Origin: Escherichia coli
GTDB taxonomy: Bacteria; Pseudomonadota; Gammaproteobacteria; Enterobacterales; Enterobacteriaceae
Strand: one strand, 5' to 3'
Assembly (NCBI RefSeq): GCF_016026235.1
Contig: NZ_CP065613.1
DNA: 64,000 bases
Below, piece after piece: positions 3,661-48,005 of the stretch. Each line of letters starts with the position of its first letter. The stretch's first letter is position 1. Under the pieces are notes generated by a model. The model did not search any database, was not told the origin of the DNA, and saw only the letters and a program-made list of their open reading frames with translations. The position numbers and the translations under genes are program-made.

Positions 3661-4020
<360 letters not shown>

Positions 4021-25460: not shown

Positions 25461-28112
25461 TTAATTGGCGGATACCGATACCGGCGCTTCCGTTGGCATC
25501 ACCTGCTGGGTCTGCTCCTGGATCACCGGCTTAATTTGATGAGGCATCGAAGGAGATATCGCCCCTGTTTGTTGACATGGTAGTAACAGGCCATTGAACA
25601 GATCGGCTGGCAGTGGGTCCGGCAGATGAATATCACAGTGGGCCACACCGCCCCATGAAACGATCATATGCTCGCCAGGTTTGACACCCGCGAGGTAGAC
25701 GTTGCCGTCATCATCAACCAGACCGACGTTCTGCGCGTTGTCATTTTTCACTTCCGCGCCAAACGGCGGATGACTGCCATCTTGCAGGCGCAATACCGCC
25801 ATCGCTTTTTGCCCGCTGATAACCGAAAACTTACGGTAGCCAATGGCTCCTTCGGTAAGCGTCGCCTGCACCACAGACTGGGTGGCTTCGGCGTTTTCCG
25901 GCAGGTTGTTAAGGTCGATATAGGCCTGATTGCGGTAGTAGTTGTTGACGTCTGCCACCACGGTCTTACCGAACATATTGGTGTAAACCGCCGCGCCATT
26001 TCCTTCCACCGGAACACCAGCCACGCCATCGGCATCAATCAGCAGGCGCGTACCGCCCATATTCTGGGTACGGTGGAGCGCGTCACCCTGCGCGGTCAGC
26101 GTCGCGCCGCCCTGTAAGGAAATACCTGCCGAGGTGTACTGTCCTTCATGGTAGTTGGCGCTGAGGTCCACCTGCGCCAGCGAGCCATCGTGGCTGTAAT
26201 AGCCGTCAACGCTGGAGTGTTTGTCACTGGTCCCCACGTTCAGCTGGTAGTGAGTTGCGTCATCGACACGGCTGAAATACCCCACCTGGCTGCTGTCCGA
26301 ACCGCTGCCGTAGTTGCCGTTATAGCTGATGGTGCTGCTGTCACCCCACGGCATACTGAGCGATATATACACACCTTTATCGGCCTGGTTATCATACTCG
26401 TAGCGGTATCCGGTCATGGAAATGCTCATATTGCGGATACTGCCTAGGTTGAAGTAGTGCGAGAGCATGACGTTGTAGTTGGTCTGTTCGTCGCGATCCC
26501 AGTAGGTATGGCGGGTGTAGTTGAGATAAACAGACACACCGGCATCCCTGAAGTTCTGGTTATAGGTGGCGGTGTACATCTCTTTGTCGTTGCCGGTGCG
26601 CACCATTTCGCTGTCGCTGGCATCGAGATACTCGCTCATGGTCATGAAGTTCTCTTCCGAGAAGCGGTATCCGGCAAAAGTGACGCGGCTGTTCAGTTCA
26701 TCGAAGTCTTTGGAATAGCTCACGCGAAACGAGTTACCGTCCAGTGAACCTTTACCGTAGGCGGTCTCTTTATCCAGGCGGGTATGCGAGTGGGTGATAT
26801 CAAAGGCGACTGCGCCAAAGACAGACAGGTCGCGACCGACGCCAAGCGCCGCCGACTGATAGTGTTCATCTGCCAGCGCCCCGCCGTACAGCGACCAGCC
26901 GTTGGCAATCCCCCATGAAGCTTCGCCGCCGGAGAAGAAACCGCCCTCAACATGATGCCCCCACTCCTGCGGGCGGCCCATCATCAGCTTATAGCGCACC
27001 TGGCCGGGGCGGGTCAGGAACGGCATCGAGGCGGTGTTGATGTCATATTCCTGCACCTGGCCGTTCTGTTCTTCAATGCGGATGTGCAGTGTACCGGAGA
27101 CAGAATCGCCAAGATCCTGGATGCGGAACGGCCCCGCCGGAACCTGCGTTTCGTAAATCACGCGGCCCATCTGGCTGACGGTCACTTTCGCGGTGGTGTG
27201 CGCCACGCCGGAGATATCCGGCGCATAGCCGCGCAGATTCGGCGGCAACATTTGATCGTCGGTGCTGATACTGCCACCCACGTAGTTAAAGCCGTCGAAA
27301 ATATCAGAATTAAGGTAGTCTTCGCCAAGGCCAAGTTTGGCTTTTAGCGACGGTAAGGCCCGCCAGGCGTAGTAGCGGCTCCACTCCCAGTTTTTTTGCG
27401 TGTCATCACCGTTGATAACATCGTCATCATTGCTTTTGCTGTGCTGGTAGTCAGTCTGCCAGTCGGCTCGCAGACGCCATGCGCCGAGGTTAACCCCAAC
27501 CGTTCCGTTGCCGCTGATTTCATTGCTGTCATCCCCGCCATTTTCTTCATGTCGTGTCTGGGCGGTAATATTGTAGTCAGCAATTAAACCAGAAATACCG
27601 TCATCCCAGCGTGAAGGTGGATCCCAGTTGATGTCGGTATATTCAAGGTAAGCCTGGGGTAATGAAATGACTAACGCTGACTGACTCAGGTCAGCTTTAA
27701 TATCAATGCCTTCCAGTTGACCGAGTTTCAGGCATTTGCCGTCGTGGATCCATTGCAGGTTTTTTGCCACATCCTCTTTTAAGCCAAACTGCGCGACCAG
27801 TTCAGGCGTCAGGCAGGCATAGGTTTTACTGGCATCGTTCTCAGAGGCGTACCAGTAAATATCGTATTCTTCCGCCAGCGGCTGTTTATTTAGTTGAACC
27901 TGTAAATTGTATTTACCAGGTTCGACATATCCCTGGCTGGAAAATCGCTTCAGATCGATTTTTGTGTCGCCTTTTAACTCCAGAAAACGGGAATCAAACT
28001 GAATTTCATCTTCAGCCCAGGCATTGACATAACACCCTGACATTGCCAGCGCAATGCAGCAGGGAAGCACCCGCAGTCGGAAAAGAGAATGGTCAGGCAT
28101 ACACGTATCCAT
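25461..28112 (-). CDS. yfcU: Outer membrane fimbrial usher, intact 883-aa reading frame
   Basis: Single uninterrupted 883-aa ORF with usher-like length and composition (long Gly/Tyr/Asn/Ser-rich beta-barrel region); located between chaperone and major subunit. Confidence 0.85.
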   Translation of the reverse strand: MDTCMPDHSLFRLRVLPCCIALAMSGCYVNAWAEDEIQFDSRFLELKGDTKIDLKRFSSQGYVEPGKYNLQVQLNKQPLAEEYDIYWYASENDASKTYACLTPELVAQFGLKEDVAKNLQWIHDGKCLKLGQLEGIDIKADLSQSALVISLPQAYLEYTDINWDPPSRWDDGISGLIADYNITAQTRHEENGGDDSNEISGNGTVGVNLGAWRLRADWQTDYQHSKSNDDDVINGDDTQKNWEWSRYYAWRALPSLKAKLGLGEDYLNSDIFDGFNYVGGSISTDDQMLPPNLRGYAPDISGVAHTTAKVTVSQMGRVIYETQVPAGPFRIQDLGDSVSGTLHIRIEEQNGQVQEYDINTASMPFLTRPGQVRYKLMMGRPQEWGHHVEGGFFSGGEASWGIANGWSLYGGALADEHYQSAALGVGRDLSVFGAVAFDITHSHTRLDKETAYGKGSLDGNSFRVSYSKDFDELNSRVTFAGYRFSEENFMTMSEYLDASDSEMVRTGNDKEMYTATYNQNFRDAGVSVYLNYTRHTYWDRDEQTNYNVMLSHYFNLGSIRNMSISMTGYRYEYDNQADKGVYISLSMPWGDSSTISYNGNYGSGSDSSQVGYFSRVDDATHYQLNVGTSDKHSSVDGYYSHDGSLAQVDLSANYHEGQYTSAGISLQGGATLTAQGDALHRTQNMGGTRLLIDADGVAGVPVEGNGAAVYTNMFGKTVVADVNNYYRNQAYIDLNNLPENAEATQSVVQATLTEGAIGYRKFSVISGQKAMAVLRLQDGSHPPFGAEVKNDNAQNVGLVDDDGNVYLAGVKPGEHMIVSWGGVAHCDIHLPDPLPADLFNGLLLPCQQTGAISPSMPHQIKPVIQEQTQQVMPTEAPVSVSAN

Positions 28113-39371: not shown

Positions 39372-39446
39372 GTCCTCTTAGTTAAATGGATATAACGAGC
39401 CCCTCCTAAGGGCTAATTGCAGGTTCGATTCCTGCAGGGGACACCA
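39372..39446 (+). tRNA. argW: tRNA-Arg (anticodon CCU)
   Basis: GTCCTCTTAGTTAAATGGATATAACGAGCCCCTCCTAAGGGCTAATTGCAGGTTCGATTCCTGCAGGGGACACCA: 75 nt, cloverleaf-compatible, anticodon loop CUCCUAA, 3' CCA encoded. Confidence 0.92.
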
Positions 39447-39887
39447 GATACCCTTCAAACCAAATCTACCTTCACCCCGTCAAAGATGGGTTTGGCAGCA
39501 CATTTGCCTTATATCTACTCATTTTTACTGCAACAGGTTGAAATCTCAGCACTGTCAGAAAGTGCTGATGACTAAACAGCCCTGGGCCGGGCGATGTAAC
39601 CATCACACAGAATCCTGATAGCGAAATATGGCGTGACTCGATACTTCACTCCGCAATGCATTCCTTGATGAATTCGCAGGCCCGTGATACACGGGAAAGG
39701 TCGCTGAATGACGACAATGTCCTGGAAATCAGCGAACCGTGTATCCGGAGTACATTTGAGCGACTGTACCAGAACATGAATGAGGTGTTTGGATTAGGCG
39801 ATTATTAGCAGGGCTAAGCATTTTACTATTATTATTTTCCGGTTGAGGGATATGGAGATATCGACAACAACCGGAAAAAGTTTACGT

Positions 39888-41135
39888 CTATATTGCTGAA
39901 GGTACAGGCGTTTCCATAACTATTTGCTCGCGTTTTTTACTCAGGAAGAAAATGCCAAATAGCAACATCAGGCAGACAATACCCGAAATTGCGAAGAAAA
40001 CTGTCTGGTAGCCTGCGTGGTCAAAGAGTATCCCAGTCGGCGTTGAAAGCAGCACAATCCCAAGCGAACTGGCAATTTGAAAACCAATCAGAAAGATCGT
40101 CGACGACAGGCGCTTATCAAAGTTTGCCACGCTGTATTTGAAGACGGATATGACACAAAGTGGAACCTCAATGGCATGTAACAGCTTCACTAATGAAATA
40201 ATCCAGGGGTTAACAAACAGCGCGCAGGAAAGGATACGCAACGCCATAATCACAACACCGATAAGTAATGCATTTTTTGGCCCTACCCGATTCACAAAGA
40301 AAGGAATAATCGCCATGCACAGCGCTTCGAGTACCACCTGGAATGAGTTGAGATAACCATACAGGCGCGTTCCTACATCGTGTGATTCGAATAAACCTGC
40401 ATAAAAGACAGGAAAAAGTTGTTGATCAAAAATGTTATAGAAAGACCACGTCCCAACAATAAATATGACGAAAACCCAGAAGTTTCGATCCTTGAAAACT
40501 GCGATAAAATCCTCTTTTTTTACCCCTCCCGCATCCGCCGCTACGCACTGGTGATTCTTATCTTTAAAACACATGTTGATCATCATAAATACAGCGCCAA
40601 ATAGCGAGACCAACCAGAAGTTGATATGGGGACTGATACTAAAAAATATGCCGGCAAAGAACGCGCCAATAGCATAGCCAAAAGATCCCCAGGCGCGCGC
40701 TGTTCCATATTCGAAATGAAAATTTCGCGCCATTTTTTCGGTGAAGCTGTCAAGCAAACCGCATCCCGCCAGATACCCCAGGCAAAAAAAGAGCGCCCCC
40801 AGAATTAGACCTACAGAAAAATTGCTTTGCAGTAATGGTTCATAAACGTAAATCATAAACGGTCCGGTCAAGACCTGGATGAAACTCATACACCAGATGA
40901 GCGGTTTCTTCAGACCGAGTTTATCCTGAACGATGCCGTAGAACATCATAAATAGAATGCTGGTAAACTGGTTGACCGAATAAAGTGTACCTAATTCCGT
41001 CCCTGTCAACCCTAGATGTCCTTTCAGCCAAATAGCGTATAACGACCACCACAGCGACCAGGAAATAAAAAAGAGAAATGAGTAACTGGATGCAAAACGA
41101 TAGTACGCATTTCTGAATGGAATATTCAGTGCCAT
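39888..41135 (-). CDS. cscB: Sucrose:H+ symporter (LacY-like MFS permease)
   Basis: 415-aa ORF MALNIPFRNAYYRFASSYSFLFFISWSLWWSLYAIWLKGHLGL... recognised as CscB. Confidence 0.88.
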   Translation of the reverse strand: MALNIPFRNAYYRFASSYSFLFFISWSLWWSLYAIWLKGHLGLTGTELGTLYSVNQFTSILFMMFYGIVQDKLGLKKPLIWCMSFIQVLTGPFMIYVYEPLLQSNFSVGLILGALFFCLGYLAGCGLLDSFTEKMARNFHFEYGTARAWGSFGYAIGAFFAGIFFSISPHINFWLVSLFGAVFMMINMCFKDKNHQCVAADAGGVKKEDFIAVFKDRNFWVFVIFIVGTWSFYNIFDQQLFPVFYAGLFESHDVGTRLYGYLNSFQVVLEALCMAIIPFFVNRVGPKNALLIGVVIMALRILSCALFVNPWIISLVKLLHAIEVPLCVISVFKYSVANFDKRLSSTIFLIGFQIASSLGIVLLSTPTGILFDHAGYQTVFFAISGIVCLMLLFGIFFLSKKREQIVMETPVPSAI

Positions 41136-41206
41136 AATTACCTGCCTGTCGTTAAAAAATTCACGTCCTATTTAGAGATAAGAGCGACTTCGCCGTTTAC
41201 TTCTCA

Positions 41207-42117
41207 CTATTCCAGTTCTTGTCGACATGGCAGCGCTGTCATTGCCCCTTTCGCCGTTACTGCAAGCGCTCCGCAACGTTGAGCGAGATCGATAATTCGT
41301 CGCATTTCTCTCTCATCTGTAGATAATCCCGTAGAGGACAGACCTGTGAGTAACCCGGCAACGAACGCATCTCCCGCCCCCGTGCTATCGACACAATCCA
41401 CAGACATTCCAGCAAAATGGTGAACTTGTCCTCGATAACAGACCACCACCCCTTCTGCACCTTTAGTCACCAACAGCATGGCGATCTCATACTCTTTTGC
41501 CAGGGCGCATATATCCCGATCGTTCTGTGTTTTTCCACTGATAAGTCGCCATTCTTCTTCCGAGAGCTTGACGACATCCGCCAGTTGTAGCGCCTGCCGC
41601 AAACACAAGCGGAGCAAATGCTCGTCTTGCCATAGATCTTCACGAATATTGGGATCGAAGCTGACAAAACCTCCGGCATGCCGGATCGCCGTCATCGCAG
41701 TAAATGCGCTGGTACGCGAAGGCTCGGCAGACAACGCAATTGAACAGAGATGTAACCATTCGCCATGTCGCCAGCAGGGCAAGTCTGTCGTCTCTAAAAA
41801 AAGATCGGCACTGGGGCGAACCATAAACGTAAATGAACGTTCCCCTTGATCGTTCAGATCGACAAGCACCGTGGATGTCCGGTGCCATTCATCTTGCTTC
41901 AGATACGTGATATCGACTCCCTCAGTTAGCAGAGTTCTTTGCATTAACGCACCAAAAGGATCATCACCGACCCGACCTATAAACCCACTTATTCCGCCTA
42001 ATCTGGCGATTCCCACCGCAACGTTAGCTGGCGCGCCGCCAGGACAAGGCAGTAGGCGCCCGTCTGATTCTGGCAAGAGATCTACTACCGCATCCCCTAA
42101 AACCCATACTTTGGCTG
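41207..42117 (-). pseudogene. cscK: Fructokinase cscK body; the ATG and first nucleotide of codon 2 are separated from it by IS4 and lie at 43556..43559
   Basis: Frame reads ...(I)TAKVWVLGDAVVDLLPESDGRLLPCPGGAPANVAVGIARLGG... (pfkB family) up to the IS4 left end; splicing out IS4 and one target-duplication copy restores ATG TCA GCC AAA GTA TGG = MSAKVW. Confidence 0.8.
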
Positions 42118-43543
42118 TAATGCCGATCAGTTAAGGATCAGTTGACCGATCCAGTGGCTGTGTAAGAATCCGGAAACGCTCACTTGTTTCCGGATTTTTT
42201 TATGCACATTGGACAGGCTCTTGATCTGGTATCCCGTTACGATTCTCTGCGTAACCCACTGACTTCTCTGGGGGATTACCTCGACCCCGAACTCATCTCT
42301 CGTTGCCTTGCCGAATCAGGTACTGTAACGCTACGCAAGCGCCGTCTTCCCCTCGAAATGATGGTCTGGTGTATTGTTGGCATGGCGCTTGAGCGTAAAG
42401 AACCTCTTCACCAGATTGTGAATCGCCTGGACATCATGCTGCCGGGCAATCGCCCCTTCGTTGCCCCCAGTGCCGTTATTCAGGCCCGCCAGCGCCTGGG
42501 AAGTGAGGCTGTCCGCCGCGTGTTCACGAAAACAGCGCAGCTCTGGCATAACGCCACGCCGCATCCGCACTGGTGCGGCCTGACCCTGCTGGCCATCGAT
42601 GGTGTGTTCTGGCGCACACCGGATACACCAGAGAACGATGCAGCCTTCCCCCGCCAGACACATGCCGGGAACCCGGCGCTCTACCCGCAGGTCAAAATGG
42701 TCTGCCAGATGGAACTGACCAGCCATCTGCTGACGGCTGCAGCCTTCGGCACGATGAAGAACAGCGAAAATGAGCTTGCTGAGCAACTTATAGAACAAAC
42801 CGGCGATAACACTCTGACGTTAATGGATAAAGGTTATTACTCACTGGGACTGTTAAATGCCTGGAGCCTGGCGGGAGAACACCGCCACTGGATGATACCT
42901 CTCAGAAAGGGAGCGCAATATGAAGAGCTCAGAAAACTGGGTAAAGGCGATCATCTGGTGAAGCTGAAAACCAGCCCGCAGGCACGAAAAAAGTGGCCGG
43001 GACTGGGAAATGAAGTGACAGCCCGCCTGCTGACCGTGACGCGCAAAGGAAAAGTCTGCCATCTGCTGACGTCGATGACGGACGCCATGCGCTTCCCCGG
43101 AGGAGAAATGGCGGATCTGTACAGTCATCGCTGGGAAATCGAACTGGGATACAGGGAGATAAAACAGACGATGCAACTGAGCAGGCTGACGCTGAGAAGT
43201 AAAAAGCCGGAGCTTGTGGAGCAAGAGCTGTGGGGTGTCTTACTGGCTTATAATCTGGTGAGATATCAGATGATTAAAATGGCGGAACATCTGAAAGGTT
43301 ACTGGCCGAATCAACTGAGTTTCTCAGAATCATGCGGAATGGTGATGAGAATGCTGATGACATTGCAGGGCGCTTCACCGGGACGTATACCGGAGCTGAT
43401 GCGCGATCTTGCAAGTATGGGACAACTTGTGAAATTACCGACGAGAAGGGGAAGGGCCTTCCCGAGAGTGGTAAAGGAGAGGCCCTGGAAATACCCCACA
43501 GCCCCGAAAAAGAGCCAGTCAGTTGCTTAACTGACTGGCATTA
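42118..43543 (+). mobile_element. IS4 insertion sequence, complete at 1426 bp, flanked by a 12-bp target duplication
   Basis: Terminal inverted repeats TAATGCCGATCAGTTAAGG (42118..) and CTTAACTGACTGGCATTA (..43543); direct repeat ATACTTTGGCTG at 42106..42117 and 43544..43555; encodes the IS4 transposase. Confidence 0.92.
42202..43530 (+). CDS. insG: IS4 transposase
   Basis: 442-aa [52 protein letters not shown]... recognised as IS4 InsG; DDE transposase. Confidence 0.92.
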
Positions 43544-43773
43544 ATACTTTGGCTGACATTTTTTTCCCTTAAATTCATCTGACTTACGCATAGTGATAAA
43601 CCTCTTTTTCGCAAAATCGTCATGGATTTACTAAAACATGCATATTCGATCACAAAATGTCATAGTTAACGTTAACATTTGTGATATTCATCGCATTATG
43701 AAAGTAAGGGACTTTATTTTTATAAAAGTTAACGTTAACAATTCACCAAATTTGCTTAACCAGGATGATTAAA

Positions 43774-45207
43774 ATGACGCAATCTCGATTGCATGCGGCG
43801 CAAAACGCACTAGCAAAACTTCATGAGCACCGGGGTAACACTTTCTATCCCCATTTTCACCTCGCGCCTCCTGCCGGGTGGATGAACGATCCAAACGGCC
43901 TGATCTGGTTTAACGATCGTTATCACGCGTTTTATCAGCATCACCCGATGAGCGAACACTGGGGGCCAATGCACTGGGGACATGCCACCAGCGACGATAT
44001 GATCCACTGGCAGCATGAGCCTATTGCGCTAGCGCCAGGAGACGATAATGACAAAGATGGGTGTTTTTCAGGTAGTGCTGTCGATGACAATGGTGTCCTC
44101 TCACTTATCTACACCGGACACGTCTGGCTCGATGGTGCAGGTAATGACGATGCAATTCGCGAAGTACAATGTCTGGCTACCAGTCGGGATGGTATTCATT
44201 TCGAGAAACAGGGTGTGATCCTCACTCCACCAGAAGGAATCATGCACTTCCGCGATCCTAAAGTGTGGCGTGAAGCCGACACATGGTGGATGGTAGTCGG
44301 GGCGAAAGACCCAGGCAACACGGGGCAGATCCTGCTTTATCGCGGCAGTTCATTACGTGAATGGACTTTCGATCGCGTACTGGCCCACGCTGATGCGGGT
44401 GAAAGCTATATGTGGGAATGTCCGGACTTTTTCAGCCTTGGCGATCAGCATTATCTGATGTTTTCCCCGCAGGGAATGAATGCCGAGGGATACAGTTACC
44501 GAAATCGCTTTCAAAGTGGCGTAATACCCGGAATGTGGTCGCCAGGACGACTTTTTGCACAATCCGGGCATTTTACTGAACTTGATAACGGGCATGACTT
44601 TTATGCACCACAAAGCTTTGTAGCGAAGGATGGTCGGCGTATTGTTATCGGCTGGATGGATATGTGGGAATCGCCAATGCCCTCAAAACGTGAAGGCTGG
44701 GCAGGCTGCATGACGCTGGCGCGCGAGCTATCAGAGAGCAATGGCAAACTCCTACAACGCCCGGTACACGAAGCTGAGTCGTTACGCCAGCAGCATCAAT
44801 CTATCTCTCCCCGCACAATCAGCAATAAATATGTTTTGCAGGAAAACGCGCAAGCAGTTGAGATTCAGTTGCAGTGGGCGCTGAAGAACAGTGATGCCGA
44901 ACATTACGGATTACAGCTCGGCACTGGAATGCGGCTGTATATTGATAACCAATCTGAGCGACTTGTTTTGTGGCGGTATTACCCACACGAGAATTTAGAC
45001 GGCTACCGTAGTATTCCCCTCCCGCAGCGTGACACGCTCGCCCTAAGGATATTTATCGATACATCATCCGTGGAAGTATTTATTAACGACGGGGAAGCGG
45101 TGATGAGTAGTCGAATCTATCCGCAGCCAGAAGAACGGGAACTGTCGCTTTATGCCTCCCACGGAGTGGCTGTGCTGCAACATGGAGCACTCTGGCAACT
45201 GGGTTAG
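43774..45207 (+). CDS. cscA: Sucrose-6-phosphate hydrolase / invertase (GH32)
   Basis: ATG at 43774 gives MTQSRLHAAQNALAKLHEHRGNTFYPHFHLAPPAGWMNDPNGLIWF... (NDPNG GH32 motif), 477 aa. Confidence 0.9.
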   Translation: MTQSRLHAAQNALAKLHEHRGNTFYPHFHLAPPAGWMNDPNGLIWFNDRYHAFYQHHPMSEHWGPMHWGHATSDDMIHWQHEPIALAPGDDNDKDGCFSGSAVDDNGVLSLIYTGHVWLDGAGNDDAIREVQCLATSRDGIHFEKQGVILTPPEGIMHFRDPKVWREADTWWMVVGAKDPGNTGQILLYRGSSLREWTFDRVLAHADAGESYMWECPDFFSLGDQHYLMFSPQGMNAEGYSYRNRFQSGVIPGMWSPGRLFAQSGHFTELDNGHDFYAPQSFVAKDGRRIVIGWMDMWESPMPSKREGWAGCMTLARELSESNGKLLQRPVHEAESLRQQHQSISPRTISNKYVLQENAQAVEIQLQWALKNSDAEHYGLQLGTGMRLYIDNQSERLVLWRYYPHENLDGYRSIPLPQRDTLALRIFIDTSSVEVFINDGEAVMSSRIYPQPEERELSLYASHGVAVLQHGALWQLG

Positions 45208-45214
45208 CATAATA

Positions 45215-46210
45215 TCAGGTGGAACAACGGATCAACAGCGGGCAAGGGATCCGCGTCACACTTCCCCCTTCACGACCTTCAATAATATGCAATGCAGCTT
45301 CCCGCCCGATAATGTCATGTGGAAGCTGAATTGTGGTCAGCGGCGGTAAAAACAGATGCCCGACACCAACCAGATTATCAAAGCCCATTACGGCGACATC
45401 CTGCGGGATACGTACCCCCTTCGCCAGGAGAACCTGATAAGCCACAAAGGCTGCGCGATCGTTACCACATATCAGAACATCAAAATCTGGTTTGCCCGAT
45501 TTGAAGTGGTCATTGAGTAAACTTGCGAGATCGGTGTAGTGATCATCACCTGTTGCCATGTGAAATTGTTTCACCTCAGCCAGATCTCGTCCAGCATCAC
45601 GCCAGGCCTGCTCAAATCCCTGCCGACGATACCCCGTTGCCAACGCACTTTCCGGTAGCCAGAAGCATAACGGTTGACGATAGCCCGCCGCGAGCAAATG
45701 CTGTGTTGATTCATATTGTGCAGTGTAATCATCAGGGATATAACTGGGTAACGCTGGGTCATCCGCCACACAGTTAGCCAATACAATATTTTCACCATAC
45801 AGAGACTCAGGTAGCGTGATATGTCGCAGCCCCATTGTAGTATAGATAATGCCATCCGGACGGTGGGCAAGCAGCTGACGTGCCGCGCGGGCAGCGTCAT
45901 CTTCAGAAAAAATATTGATTAAAAAACTATTCCAGCCGAACTCGCTGGCGGTTTGCTCAATGGCAAGCAGAATATCAACAGAGAAAGGAGTGGTAGCCGT
46001 GTCCTGCGCCAGCACGGCGAGAGTCGACGGCTTACGTCCTTGAGCGCGCATCTTACGGGCGGAAAGATCAGGAACATAATTCAGGGTCTGGATTGCCTGC
46101 AATACGCGGTCACGCGTTGCAGGACGCACAGATTCTGCATTATGCATCACCCGGGAGACTGTCATCATCGACACTCCCGCCAGGCGTGCGACATCCTTTA
46201 ATGAAGCCAT
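45215..46210 (-). CDS. cscR: LacI-family sucrose operon repressor
   Basis: Start set at the ATG (46210) giving MASLKDVARLAGVSMMTVSRVMHNAESVRPATRDRVLQAIQTLNYVPD... (HTH LacI), 331 aa; the ORF track starts 62 codons upstream. Confidence 0.88.
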   Translation of the reverse strand: MASLKDVARLAGVSMMTVSRVMHNAESVRPATRDRVLQAIQTLNYVPDLSARKMRAQGRKPSTLAVLAQDTATTPFSVDILLAIEQTASEFGWNSFLINIFSEDDAARAARQLLAHRPDGIIYTTMGLRHITLPESLYGENIVLANCVADDPALPSYIPDDYTAQYESTQHLLAAGYRQPLCFWLPESALATGYRRQGFEQAWRDAGRDLAEVKQFHMATGDDHYTDLASLLNDHFKSGKPDFDVLICGNDRAAFVAYQVLLAKGVRIPQDVAVMGFDNLVGVGHLFLPPLTTIQLPHDIIGREAALHIIEGREGGSVTRIPCPLLIRCST

Positions 46211-46676: not shown

Positions 46677-48005
46677 ATGGAAAACGCTAAAATGAACTCG
46701 CTCATCGCCCAGTATCCGTTGGTAAAGGATCTGGTTGCTCTTAAAGAAACCACCTGGTTTAATCCTGGCACGACCTCATTGGCTGAAGGTTTACCTTATG
46801 TTGGCCTGACCGAACAGGATGTTCAGGACGCCCATGCGCGCTTATCCCGTTTTGCACCCTATCTGGCAAAAGCATTTCCTGAAACTGCTGCCACTGGGGG
46901 GATTATTGAATCAGAACTGGTTGCCATTCCGGCTATACAAAAACGGCTGGAAAAGGAATATCAACAACCGATCAGCGGGCAACTGTTACTGAAAAAAGAT
47001 AGCCATTTGCCCATTTCCGGCTCCATAAAAGCACGCGGCGGGATTTATGAAGTCCTGGCACACGCAGAAAAACTGGCTCTGGAAGCGGGGTTGCTGACGC
47101 TTGATGATGACTACAGCAAACTGCTGTCTCCGGAGTTTAAACAGTTCTTTAGCCAATACAGCATTGCTGTGGGCTCAACCGGAAATCTGGGGTTATCAAT
47201 CGGCATTATGAGCGCCCGCATTGGCTTTAAGGTGACAGTGCATATGTCTGCTGATGCCCGGGCATGGAAAAAAGCGAAACTGCGCAGCCATGGCGTTACG
47301 GTCGTGGAATATGAGCAAGATTATGGTGTTGCCGTCGAGGAAGGACGTAAAGCAGCGCACTCTGACCCGAACTGTTTCTTTATTGATGACGAAAATTCCC
47401 GCACGTTGTTCCTTGGGTATTCCGTCGCTGGCCAGCGTCTTAAAGCGCAATTTGCCCAGCAAGGCCGTATCGTCGATGCTGATAACCCTCTGTTTGTCTA
47501 TCTGCCGTGTGGTGTTGGCGGTGGTCCTGGTGGCGTCGCATTCGGGCTTAAACTGGCGTTTGGCGATCATGTTCACTGCTTTTTTGCCGAACCAACGCAC
47601 TCCCCTTGTATGTTGTTAGGCGTCCATACAGGATTACACGATCAGATTTCTGTTCAGGATATTGGTATCGACAACCTTACCGCAGCGGATGGCCTTGCAG
47701 TTGGTCGCGCATCAGGCTTTGTCGGGCGGGCAATGGAGCGTCTGCTGGATGGCTTCTATACCCTTAGCGATCAAACCATGTATGACATGCTTGGCTGGCT
47801 GGCGCAGGAAGAAGGTATTCGTCTTGAACCTTCGGCACTGGCGGGTATGACCGGACCTCAGCGCGTGTGTGCATCAGTAAGTTACCAACAGATGCACGGT
47901 TTCAGCGCAGAACAACTGCGTAATACCACTCATCTGGTGTGGGCGACGGGAGGTGGAATGGTGCCGGAAGAAGAGATGAATCAATATCTGGCAAAAGGCC
48001 GTTAA
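46677..48005 (+). CDS. dsdA: D-serine dehydratase (PLP-dependent)
   Basis: 442-aa [34 protein letters not shown]... recognised as DsdA. Confidence 0.93.

Follow-up and report, generated by a model that had tools for sequence, protein, structure and literature searches.

A recent IS4 insertion four nucleotides into cscK of Escherichia coli, at a preferred target site and with probable silencing of cscKB

In the Escherichia coli sequence analysed here (a stretch of 64,000 nucleotides, referred to below as the window) the sucrose locus carries a complete IS4 at the very start of cscK. This raises the question of how and when the element arrived, why it chose this nucleotide, and what is left of cscK and cscB expression. 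The explanation that we regard as highly probable is a recent IS4 insertion at a target-preferred site, with silencing expected.

The element and its insertion point in the csc locus

The element and the repeats which flank it were located as follows.

42106..42117, no strand, left copy of the target-site duplication, ATACTTTGGCTG, equal to cscK nucleotides 16-5 read on the plus strand
42118..43543, plus strand, complete IS4 of 1426 bp, its transposase strand antisense to cscK
42118..42135, plus strand, left inverted repeat (IRL), TAATGCCGATCAGTTAAG, fitting the IS4-subgroup end signature
42142..42169, plus strand, candidate transposase promoter called by consensus scan alone (TTGACC, 16-nt spacer, AAGAAT, extended-10 TG)
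42164..42206, plus strand, inward hairpin with a stem of about 14-15 bp followed by U7, directly 5' of the transposase ATG
42202..43530, plus strand, transposase gene (442 aa plus stop), one ORF from the ATG at 42202 with no frameshift
43526..43543, plus strand, right inverted repeat (IRR), CTTAACTGACTGGCATTA, paired with IRL
43544..43555, no strand, right copy of the target-site duplication, ATACTTTGGCTG, a perfect 12-bp match to the left copy

A preliminary description of this DNA had reported a full-length 1426-bp IS4 with imperfect 18-bp ends and an intact 442-aa transposase, and each of these sequence claims was correct. The size lies within the 1400-1650 bp given for the IS4 subgroup (PMC2266710, Table 1), and the two 18-nt ends are complementary at 16 of 18 positions. 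The subgroup end signature, -AATR--------WTW---- (PMC2266710), is present in TAATGCCGATCAGTTAAG, which has AAT at positions 2-4, G at position 5 and TTA at positions 14-16. The transposase covered the full profile of the NCBIfam transpos_IS4_1 equivalog at 303.8 bits (cut-off 115) and its translation contained the YREK signature, Y-(2)-R-(3)-E-(6)-K; for the identical protein Pfam lists PF13006 and PF01609, and the transposase is of the DDE type. Compared with E. coli IS4 (insG), the type element of the IS4 family, the length, inverted repeats, 442-aa DDE/YREK transposase, 12-bp duplication and A-run/T-run target arms were all alike; the element itself showed no difference and only its location was strain-specific, being found in the window and a few other genomes. 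There were no mismatches between the window IS4 and IS4 copies in other public genomes, one of which contained five identical copies.

The intact ORF and ends, together with the occurrence of the same IS4 sequence at several places in a single genome, suggest that the window IS4 is active in transposition, and the empty site in a 99.94% identical relative (see below) points in the same direction. The site at 42142..42169 may act as promoter of the transposase gene, while the IRL-side hairpin (-18.8 kcal/mol, z = -5.4) would either stop transcripts entering from the left or fold away their ribosome site. An Rfam search gave zero RNA family matches within or beside IS4.

The locus around the element is organized as listed here.

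39888..41135, minus strand, cscB (sucrose permease, 415 aa), intact, downstream of cscK in the same operon
41207..42121, minus strand, body of cscK (fructokinase), its frame open up to an ATT at 42121-42119 that comes from the IS4 terminus
43527..43559, minus strand, orphaned native cscK start (ATG 43559-43557), a 10-codon ORF with its stop inside IRR
43560..43773, no strand, cscK-cscA intergenic control region, intact, with operator-like palindromes and a cscA promoter-like site
43774..45207, plus strand, cscA (invertase, 477 aa), intact, NCBIfam sucrose-6-P hydrolase family at 479 bits
45215..46210, minus strand, cscR (LacI-family repressor, 331 aa), intact, with a LacI-family regulator match

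The gene order of this chromosomal non-PTS sucrose regulon, with cscB and cscK divergent from cscA and cscR beyond cscA, is that of the RefSeq annotations, and the cscK-cscB operon structure has been described previously (PMC3938415). The cscK body scored 471.2 bits against NCBIfam fructokinase and cscB 586.7 bits against the NCBIfam oligosaccharide MFS transporter. The locus sits between argW, a tRNA-Arg(CCT) gene at 39372-39446, and dsdA at 46677-48005, consistent with the published location between argW and truncated dsdX/dsdA (PMC3032704); a truncated dsdX remnant is annotated in relatives.

IS4 entered after nucleotide 4 of cscK and the duplication spans nucleotides 5-16 (codons 2-6), so that the ATGT at 43559-43556 is parted from the gene body. 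When IS4 and one repeat copy were removed the sequence read ATGTCAGCCAAAGTATGG... and opened a 304-aa ORF, MSAKVWVLGDAVVD..., corresponding to CscK with an MSAKVW start. The restored sequence was matched base for base by the empty site of E. coli FDAARGOS_943, and also by the cscK 5' end of E. coli W as given in a primer, ATGTCAGCCAAAGTATGGGTTTTAGG (PMC3938415); both bear out the insertion point and native N-terminus proposed earlier. Within the window ATACTTTGGCTG occurred only twice when both strands were checked, and 12 bp falls inside the 10-13 bp range of IS4-subgroup duplications (PMC2266710). We judged the repeat to be a target duplication, as the preliminary description had, and rejected a native origin: in 2649 of 2662 csc-carrying genomes the site is uninterrupted and holds one copy. 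An assembly artefact was ruled out by the perfect duplication and by the same junctions in independent assemblies.

It had also been claimed that the insertion splits the divergent cscA-cscKB control region, which we did not find. CscR operators are known as two 12-bp inverted repeats (PMC11251922, citing Jahreis 2002), and two operator-like palindromes, GTTAACGTTAAC, were present at 43665-43676 and 43728-43739, with a cscA promoter-like site at 43672-43699. Both palindromes and the whole intergenic region are still contiguous with cscA; the insertion has left the operators and cscA alone, and the control region is in one piece.

Transcription and translation across the insertion

The cscK body and cscB have, as was originally proposed, been cut off from the native start codon and promoter, and the Shine-Dalgarno sequence has been lost to them as well. 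One further element lies in the path of transcripts from the native promoter.

43505..43539, minus strand (the cscK strand), inward terminator-like element with an 11-bp stem, GCCAGUCAGUU/AACUGACUGGC, a 4-nt loop and then UCUUUUU

This hairpin (-18.7 kcal/mol, z = -5.6) was reported by the terminator scan and, at 5 nt inside IS4, is the first structure facing transcripts from the cscK promoter; the U-tract behind it is short and interrupted. Translation of transcripts from the CscR/CRP-controlled promoter would be limited to 10 codons, after which they would reach the inward hairpin and U-tract, and any read-through would face 1.4 kb of untranslated antisense IS4 RNA in which Rho-dependent termination is expected. 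On the far side of the element, IS4 would direct no promoter toward cscK, and the remaining starts would be a TTG that truncates the protein and an ATT with no Shine-Dalgarno sequence before it. With the hairpin in place and no outward promoter, cscKB is probably silenced by IS4, and we expect little or no expression of CscK and, what weighs more, of the essential permease CscB.

The alternative is that IS4 acts as a mobile promoter, so that the operon has been rewired and not silenced, with CscR-independent cscKB expression and a cscK start at ATT or at TTG 42076. The cscK frame does run open into the IS end, the product from ATT would differ from wild type only at residue 2, PGAP calls a full-length cscK CDS, and cscB, with a start of its own, would require no more than transcription. 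Against this, a crude consensus scan, which may overlook promoters in IS4 or cscK that are weak, sigma-S-dependent or activator-dependent, found no sigma-70-like site of at least 9/12 on the cscK strand in 39700-43800, and a relaxed scan of the IRL-proximal part of IS4 (42118-42600) gave just two 8/12 matches, both with poor, non-optimal spacers and some 270-300 nt inside the element; an outward or hybrid promoter at the left end of IS4 was rejected on these grounds. The consensus scan likewise found no internal cscB promoter within cscK or in the 71-bp cscK-cscB spacer. ATT is a very poor translation initiator, and the sequence upstream of it, GATCGGC, contains no Shine-Dalgarno motif. The in-frame TTG at 42076 is the first canonical cscK start and opens a 289-aa ORF, but a product begun there lacks residues 1-15, including the conserved GDAVVD segment. 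The escape route of an outward promoter combined with this TTG, which the preliminary description had allowed for, thus found no support, and we consider expression driven from IS4 very unlikely.

Growth on sucrose depends on both cscB and cscA (PMC3938415), and a silenced cscKB would be expected to give a sucrose-negative or very slow phenotype with cscA, cscR and their regulation intact. Wild-type csc with an intact cscR supports slow or no growth in many isolates (PMC11251922), so the phenotypic difference could be small.

Age, recurrence and target choice

The closest relative of the window was E. coli FDAARGOS_943, which has the empty site and differed by 28 substitutions in 47.5 kb (99.94% identity) and by three IS presence/absence differences; its identity to the window was about 99.9% over 45 kb, against 98.8-99.1% for the next-best genomes. 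The empty site in so similar a genome, together with an IS4 identical to copies elsewhere, supported the earlier view of a recent event. The window junction with matching flanks was in no complete E. coli RefSeq genome; it was carried by GCA_901482675.2 with 1 mismatch in 4329 bp. An active IS4 copy would have entered cscK recently by cut and paste, staggered cuts after nucleotides 4 and 16 leaving the 12-bp target duplication, and precise excision between the repeats could restore cscK.

Among 2662 complete E. coli genomes with csc, eight had IS4 at exactly the same cscK nucleotide with an identical duplication, six in the orientation of the window and two in the opposite one. The flanks formed five haplotype groups, 19-106 substitutions per flank apart, and the IS4 copies at the site differed by only 3-13 nt across strains; the window copy was 3-12 nt away from those of the other strains. 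With the window included there were at least five independent IS4 events at this nucleotide, in both orientations.

To describe the target, we took the pattern directly from 26 distinct IS4 sites, which showed an A-run at -16..-10 and a T-run at +10..+16. The cscK site has this geometry, AAAA-CCC-[ATACTTTGGCTG]-ACA-TTTTTTT, in which A-run and T-run stand about 18 bp apart with the duplicated bases in the middle; the A-rich spacer that precedes the cscK start codon and the GGG TTT TA codons supply the runs. In a position matrix trained on 22 non-csc IS4 sites, with the cscK site excluded, the cscK site ranked 3rd of 125,043 window positions. A 'spectacular' specificity in the target arms has been noted for the IS4 subgroup (PMC2266710). 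The A4-N18-T4 motif was also found at six unoccupied places in the window, and therefore does not by itself fully determine where IS4 lands. Site preference explains why IS4 chose this cscK nucleotide: the same position has been struck repeatedly, in both orientations and in unrelated lineages, because its geometry is one that IS4 prefers.

A single ancient insertion, spread by descent or recombination with no hot spot involved, would be another way to arrive at a shared position. Within one group, CE0021a, 789 and ST865/866, flanks and IS4 are virtually identical (0-2 differences), and the insertion there probably arose once and was then inherited or transferred. Across the carriers as a whole, the two genomes with the opposite orientation and the same duplication, the haplotype-specific SNPs within 15-40 bp of the IS ends, and the identity of the window flanks to those of an empty-site genome all speak against it, as does RMDEC465, whose flanks are 4% from the window while its IS4 differs by just 3 nt. 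Opposite orientation, flank haplotypes and empty-site flanks largely refute a single event, and we give it almost no credence.

Recurrence could alternatively reflect positive selection, if host-restricted, Shigella/EIEC-like lineages gain a pathoadaptive advantage from no longer taking up sucrose. Destruction of csc is near-universal in Shigella and selection against the locus has been suggested (PMC11251922); the same allele as the window IS4 is found in genomes with several identical IS4 copies, and FDAARGOS_943 carries IS1 and IS600 insertions of the kind typical of IS-expanded lineages. A Shigella/EIEC affinity of the window strain is only suggested. Against selection, only the 8 of 2662 genomes bear the insertion, from cattle, turkey, pig and human sources with no evident common niche. 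Target preference alone places the site in the top 3 of the window, and the eno-flanking and mdh-degQ sites have been hit repeatedly by IS4 too, so recurrence needs no selection. We regard selection as unlikely. A more elaborate version, in which the cscK start is an orientation-independent IS4 landing pad and serves as a recurrent, reversible sucrose off-switch selected in host-adapted E. coli and Shigella and hidden in RefSeq by the ATT, appears to us distinctly unlikely; reversal in that version would be the precise excision between the 12-bp repeats. Recent insertion at a site that IS4 prefers remains our reading of the locus.

Related insertions, annotation and significance

Disruption of csc by insertion sequences is best documented in Shigella, where cscK and cscB usually contain an interrupting IS1, IS3 or IS4 (PMC11251922), and IS4 belongs to the five IS types that have expanded in Shigella and EIEC (PMC7373316). 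The window resembles those loci in having cscRAKB beside argW and dsdA, in an IS hit on cscK/cscB that includes IS4, and in an intact cscA and cscR with a sucrose-negative phenotype expected; it is unlike them in that nothing else in the locus is damaged and the insertion is single and recent. The likeness is at the level of genes, the text of that paper being without nucleotide-level insertion positions (PMC11251922). Also comparable are the scrY::IS3 insertions of E. coli F/ST62, which lie 12 bp into scrY and from which Suc+ revertants arise under prolonged selection (PMC11251922). In both cases an IS sits a few bases into the first gene of a sucrose operon with downstream polarity presumed, but scrY::IS3 involves the IS3 family and the scr operon (PTS pathway) and is one clonal configuration that is not recurrent (PMC11251922). 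A laboratory-evolution preprint describes IS4 becoming linked to a cscBKA plasmid (10.1101/2024.12.20.629655).

The cscK::IS4 insertion is an ordinary mobile-element insertion of an already known kind, with no new element or mechanism. Polar IS4 insertions in galT and in the pheST attenuator were reportedly described in the early 1980s by Klaer, Habermann and Starlinger and by Mayaux et al., with strong site specificity, 11-13-bp duplications and one site occupied in both orientations. That work is also said to have arrived at an AAA-N20-TTT target consensus, which the cscK site satisfies, in a target gene other than galT or pheST.

In the carriers with annotation examined, RefSeq/PGAP calls cscK as a full-length CDS from the ATT supplied by the IS4 end. 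The gene is annotated as intact because the IS4 terminus creates this in-frame codon; automated annotation thereby leaves the disruption unflagged, and gene-presence surveys therefore overcount functional csc loci. Neither the in-frame ATT at the IS4 end nor the recurrent IS4 hot spot had been noticed in the preliminary description.

For the strain itself, one would predict from the insertion that growth on sucrose is absent or very slow, despite the intact appearance of all four csc genes; this is of relevance to genome-based phenotype prediction and to biochemical typing. For IS4, cscK::IS4 is a clean natural illustration of the narrow target choice of the element.

IS4 at the cscK site

The features of the interrupted csc locus are listed in window coordinates.
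39888-41135, minus strand: cscB (sucrose permease)
41207-42117, minus strand: body of cscK (fructokinase)
42118-43543: IS4 element, 1426 bp, read from the sequence and script-checked
42202 (ATG) to 43530 (stop): IS4 transposase reading frame, 442 aa
43539-43505, cscK strand: terminator-like hairpin at the right inverted repeat (IRR), five bases inside the IS, 11-bp G+C-containing stem followed by UCUUUUU
43774-45207, plus strand: cscA (invertase)
45215-46210, minus strand: cscR (repressor), with dsdA next

The tRNA-Arg(CCT) gene argW lies just upstream, which is where the csc regulon is normally located (PMC3032704). Reading of 41900-43800 together with a script confirmed the preliminary description of a full-length 1426-bp IS4 with imperfect 18-bp inverted repeats, a 442-aa transposase and a perfect flanking 12-bp direct repeat. 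The 18-nt ends (TAATGCCGATCAGTTAAG / CTTAACTGACTGGCATTA) are complementary at 16 of 18 positions, and the repeat ATACTTTGGCTG is found at 42106-42117 and 43544-43555 and nowhere else on either strand of the whole window. The transposase matched the NCBIfam IS4 equivalog over the entire profile (303.8 bits, cut-off 115) and carries the Y-(2)-R-(3)-E-(6)-K motif defined for the family in PMC2266710; the element also conforms to what that review lists for the IS4 subgroup in end signature (-AATR--------WTW----), size range and duplication length (10-13 bp). Public genomes have the same 1426 bp elsewhere with 0 differences, and the inserted element is IS4 itself.

In silico deletion of IS4 and one repeat copy restored ATG TCA GCC AAA GTA TGG, the start of a 304-aa fructokinase (MSAKVWVLGDAVVD...). 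E. coli FDAARGOS_943, whose site is uninterrupted, showed no differences at this junction, which also agreed with the cscK 5' end of the sucrose-positive strain W, as printed in a primer (PMC3938415), so that the proposed native N-terminus MSAKVW was borne out. The cscK 5' region was present in 2662 of 5426 complete E. coli genomes and uninterrupted in 2649 of them, indicating that the native 12-mer is single-copy and that the repeat, which spans cscK nt 5-16, is by sequence comparison a genuine target duplication rather than native sequence.

FDAARGOS_943 was by far the closest genome (99.9% identity over 45 kb; next best 98.8-99.1%). Direct alignment with the window over 47.5 kb gave 28 substitutions. 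Large differences numbered exactly three, IS600 and IS1 being present only in FDAARGOS_943 and IS4 only in the window. A public assembly, GCA_901482675.2, shares this csc::IS4 (1 mismatch in 4329 bp) and has at least four additional IS4 copies at other sites which are identical to the window copy. The empty site in a 99.94%-identical strain and these identical copies argue for a young insertion, as had been proposed, in a lineage in which IS activity continues. IS4 is among five IS types expanded in Shigella and EIEC (PMC7373316). The IS600 lies in a yfc fimbrial usher gene (empty target at window 28033-28040) and the IS1 between mlaA and fadL, in a hypothetical gene (empty target at 36173-36180); counting the IS4, these near-identical strains differ by the presence or absence of three IS elements in 49 kb. 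At window 45114, within cscA, FDAARGOS_943 has an extra ATC (3 nt; added Ile, SSRIIYPQ) that the window and other strains lack; the window CscA has the usual 477 aa. Three tandem matches to Rfam naRNA4 (CssrE, REP-derived; 73-80 bits) at 3712-3964, minus strand, are unrelated to the csc insertion.

Expected effect on cscKB expression

cscB lies directly downstream of cscK in the same operon, and growth on sucrose requires both cscB and cscA (PMC3938415). The native start signals, a Shine-Dalgarno sequence with its ATG (AAGGGAAAAAAATG), now lead a 10-codon reading frame which stops within IRR. The IRR-side hairpin has a folding energy of -18.7 kcal/mol (z = -5.6), and no shuffled sequence folded equally well. 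A mirror 14-15-bp stem followed by U7 (-18.8 kcal/mol) is found on the plus strand at the other IS end, right before the transposase ATG. With inward-facing terminator-like structures at both ends IS4 should be polar in either orientation, and we propose these predicted hairpins as the proximate cause of polarity. Transcripts from the cscK promoter would be translated for only 10 codons before reaching the hairpin and U-tract inside IS4; beyond it they would contain 1.4 kb of untranslated antisense IS4 RNA. Rho-dependent termination is expected in such long untranslated RNA.

A scan of the cscK strand revealed no sigma-70-like promoter in IS4, cscK or the cscK-cscB spacer. Upstream of the cscK body the reading frame stays open as far as a TAA within the left inverted repeat, and it includes an ATT made by the IS terminus (ATT ACA GCC AAA...), ahead of which no Shine-Dalgarno sequence was found. 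The first canonical start is TTG 42076, whose product would lose residues 1-15, GDAVVD included. The escape route allowed for earlier, an outward promoter combined with this TTG, is thus disfavored, and given the terminator-like hairpin and the lack of a promoter or good start we would expect little or no CscK and CscB.

The divergent cscA-cscKB control region had also been described as split. It is not, as cscA and cscR, the two operator-like palindromes (43665-43676, 43728-43739) and the promoter-like site of cscA are contiguous and untouched; this was the sole point that did not hold, the interpretation being otherwise supported, if incomplete in places.

On the plus strand (42142-42206), the -10 hexamer of a candidate transposase promoter sits in the left arm of the pre-ATG hairpin. 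Transcripts started at this promoter would not include the arm and read-in transcripts would fold the hairpin, from which we infer that the transposase gene may be shielded from outside transcription.

Recurrence and target preference

IS4 was found at the same nucleotide, with the same 12-bp duplication and orientation, in six complete genomes (CE0021a, 789, ST865, ST866, JNEC-KY173 and RMDEC465), and in opposite orientation with the same duplication in two more (HCP5S3_I2, LCP30S3_I5). Pairwise comparison divided the carriers into five groups: the window, with flanks identical to an empty-site genome; CE0021a/789/ST866, 0-2 substitutions apart in each flank or IS4 segment compared, and probably one insertion event; JNEC-KY173, with flanks 46 and 61 substitutions from the window; RMDEC465, with flanks 90 and 106 substitutions away (~4%) yet an IS4 differing by only 3 nt; and the opposite-orientation pair. 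Haplotype-specific SNPs were found 15-40 bp from the IS ends. These groups and SNPs indicate, at the level of sequence, at least five independent insertions at one cscK nucleotide. RMDEC465 also has a cscA annotated as frameshifted (L003, 5575-7009), together with ~31 IS4-matching places in its genome, which suggests that the locus has decayed further in a strain where IS4 has expanded.

Thirty more IS4 loci were collected by exact look-up of three transposase variants and their empty targets reconstructed. The 26 distinct sites have an A-run ~10-16 bp left of the duplication centre and a T-run at the mirror position, usually spaced by 18 bp; many are bidirectional terminators, such as AAAAAACCGG...CCGGTTTTTT between mdh and degQ. 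This pattern agrees with the AAA-N20-TTT target rule of the 1980s literature. It also agrees with the 'spectacular' arm specificity described for the IS4 subgroup (PMC2266710). The cscK target, AAAA-CCC-[ATACTTTGGCTG]-ACA-TTTTTTT, is a perfect A4-N18-T7, with its runs supplied by the A-rich spacer that precedes the ATG and by the codons GGG TTT TA. After training on 22 sites, with csc and duplicate loci left out, a symmetrised position matrix placed it 3rd among the 125,043 positions scored in the window once the IS had been deleted. The bare A4-N18-T4 motif looks necessary but is insufficient alone, since it occurs six more times in the window; one match lies within cscB (40495-40520). Unoccupied high-scoring targets are predicted at window centres 39295 (the best, between yfdC and argW), 7072, 256, 18425 and 37288, the last resembling a bidirectional terminator.

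Other recurrent IS4 sites in different genomes were L020 vs L022/L025, L009 vs L015, L023 vs L024, and L029/L032/L037. The one beside eno is occupied in both orientations. At a site by a phage integrase gene the duplication was shifted by one base, and the TTTGTTACAAACAC/CAGAACCAAGAT site common to three genomes fits the A-run/T-run pattern poorly. In L013 (740-3367) IS4 is nested in another DDE-transposase gene, flanked by 234-aa and 145-aa fragments, making it an IS within an IS.

Known systems and annotation

In Shigella, cscK/cscB are interrupted by IS elements including IS4 and csc is described as non-functional (PMC11251922); the present insertion is an ordinary event of this known kind. 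An analogous case is scrY::IS3, in which IS3 sits 12 bp inside scrY, the first scr operon gene, and from which Suc+ revertants arose (PMC11251922). We think it improbable that host-adapted lineages use the cscK site as a selected and reversible off-switch for the uptake of sucrose. Other IS4 sites, for example near eno (L020 vs L022/L025), have likewise been hit more than once or in both orientations across genomes, and the recurrence in cscK therefore requires no special selection.

The present analysis contributes the recurrence at nucleotide level, a site-predicting target model, the inward-facing hairpins and an annotation artefact. Both IS4 ends finish ...GGCATTA on the cscK strand, so that an in-frame ATT arises in either orientation. 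In the six carrier genomes examined (L001, L003-L007) RefSeq/PGAP lists cscK, under the product name 'aminoimidazole riboside kinase', as a complete CDS of 915-918 nt (304-305 aa) with an ATT start (ITAKVW...) and not as a pseudogene. The disruption is thus invisible in the annotation, and gene-content surveys would score these loci as intact.
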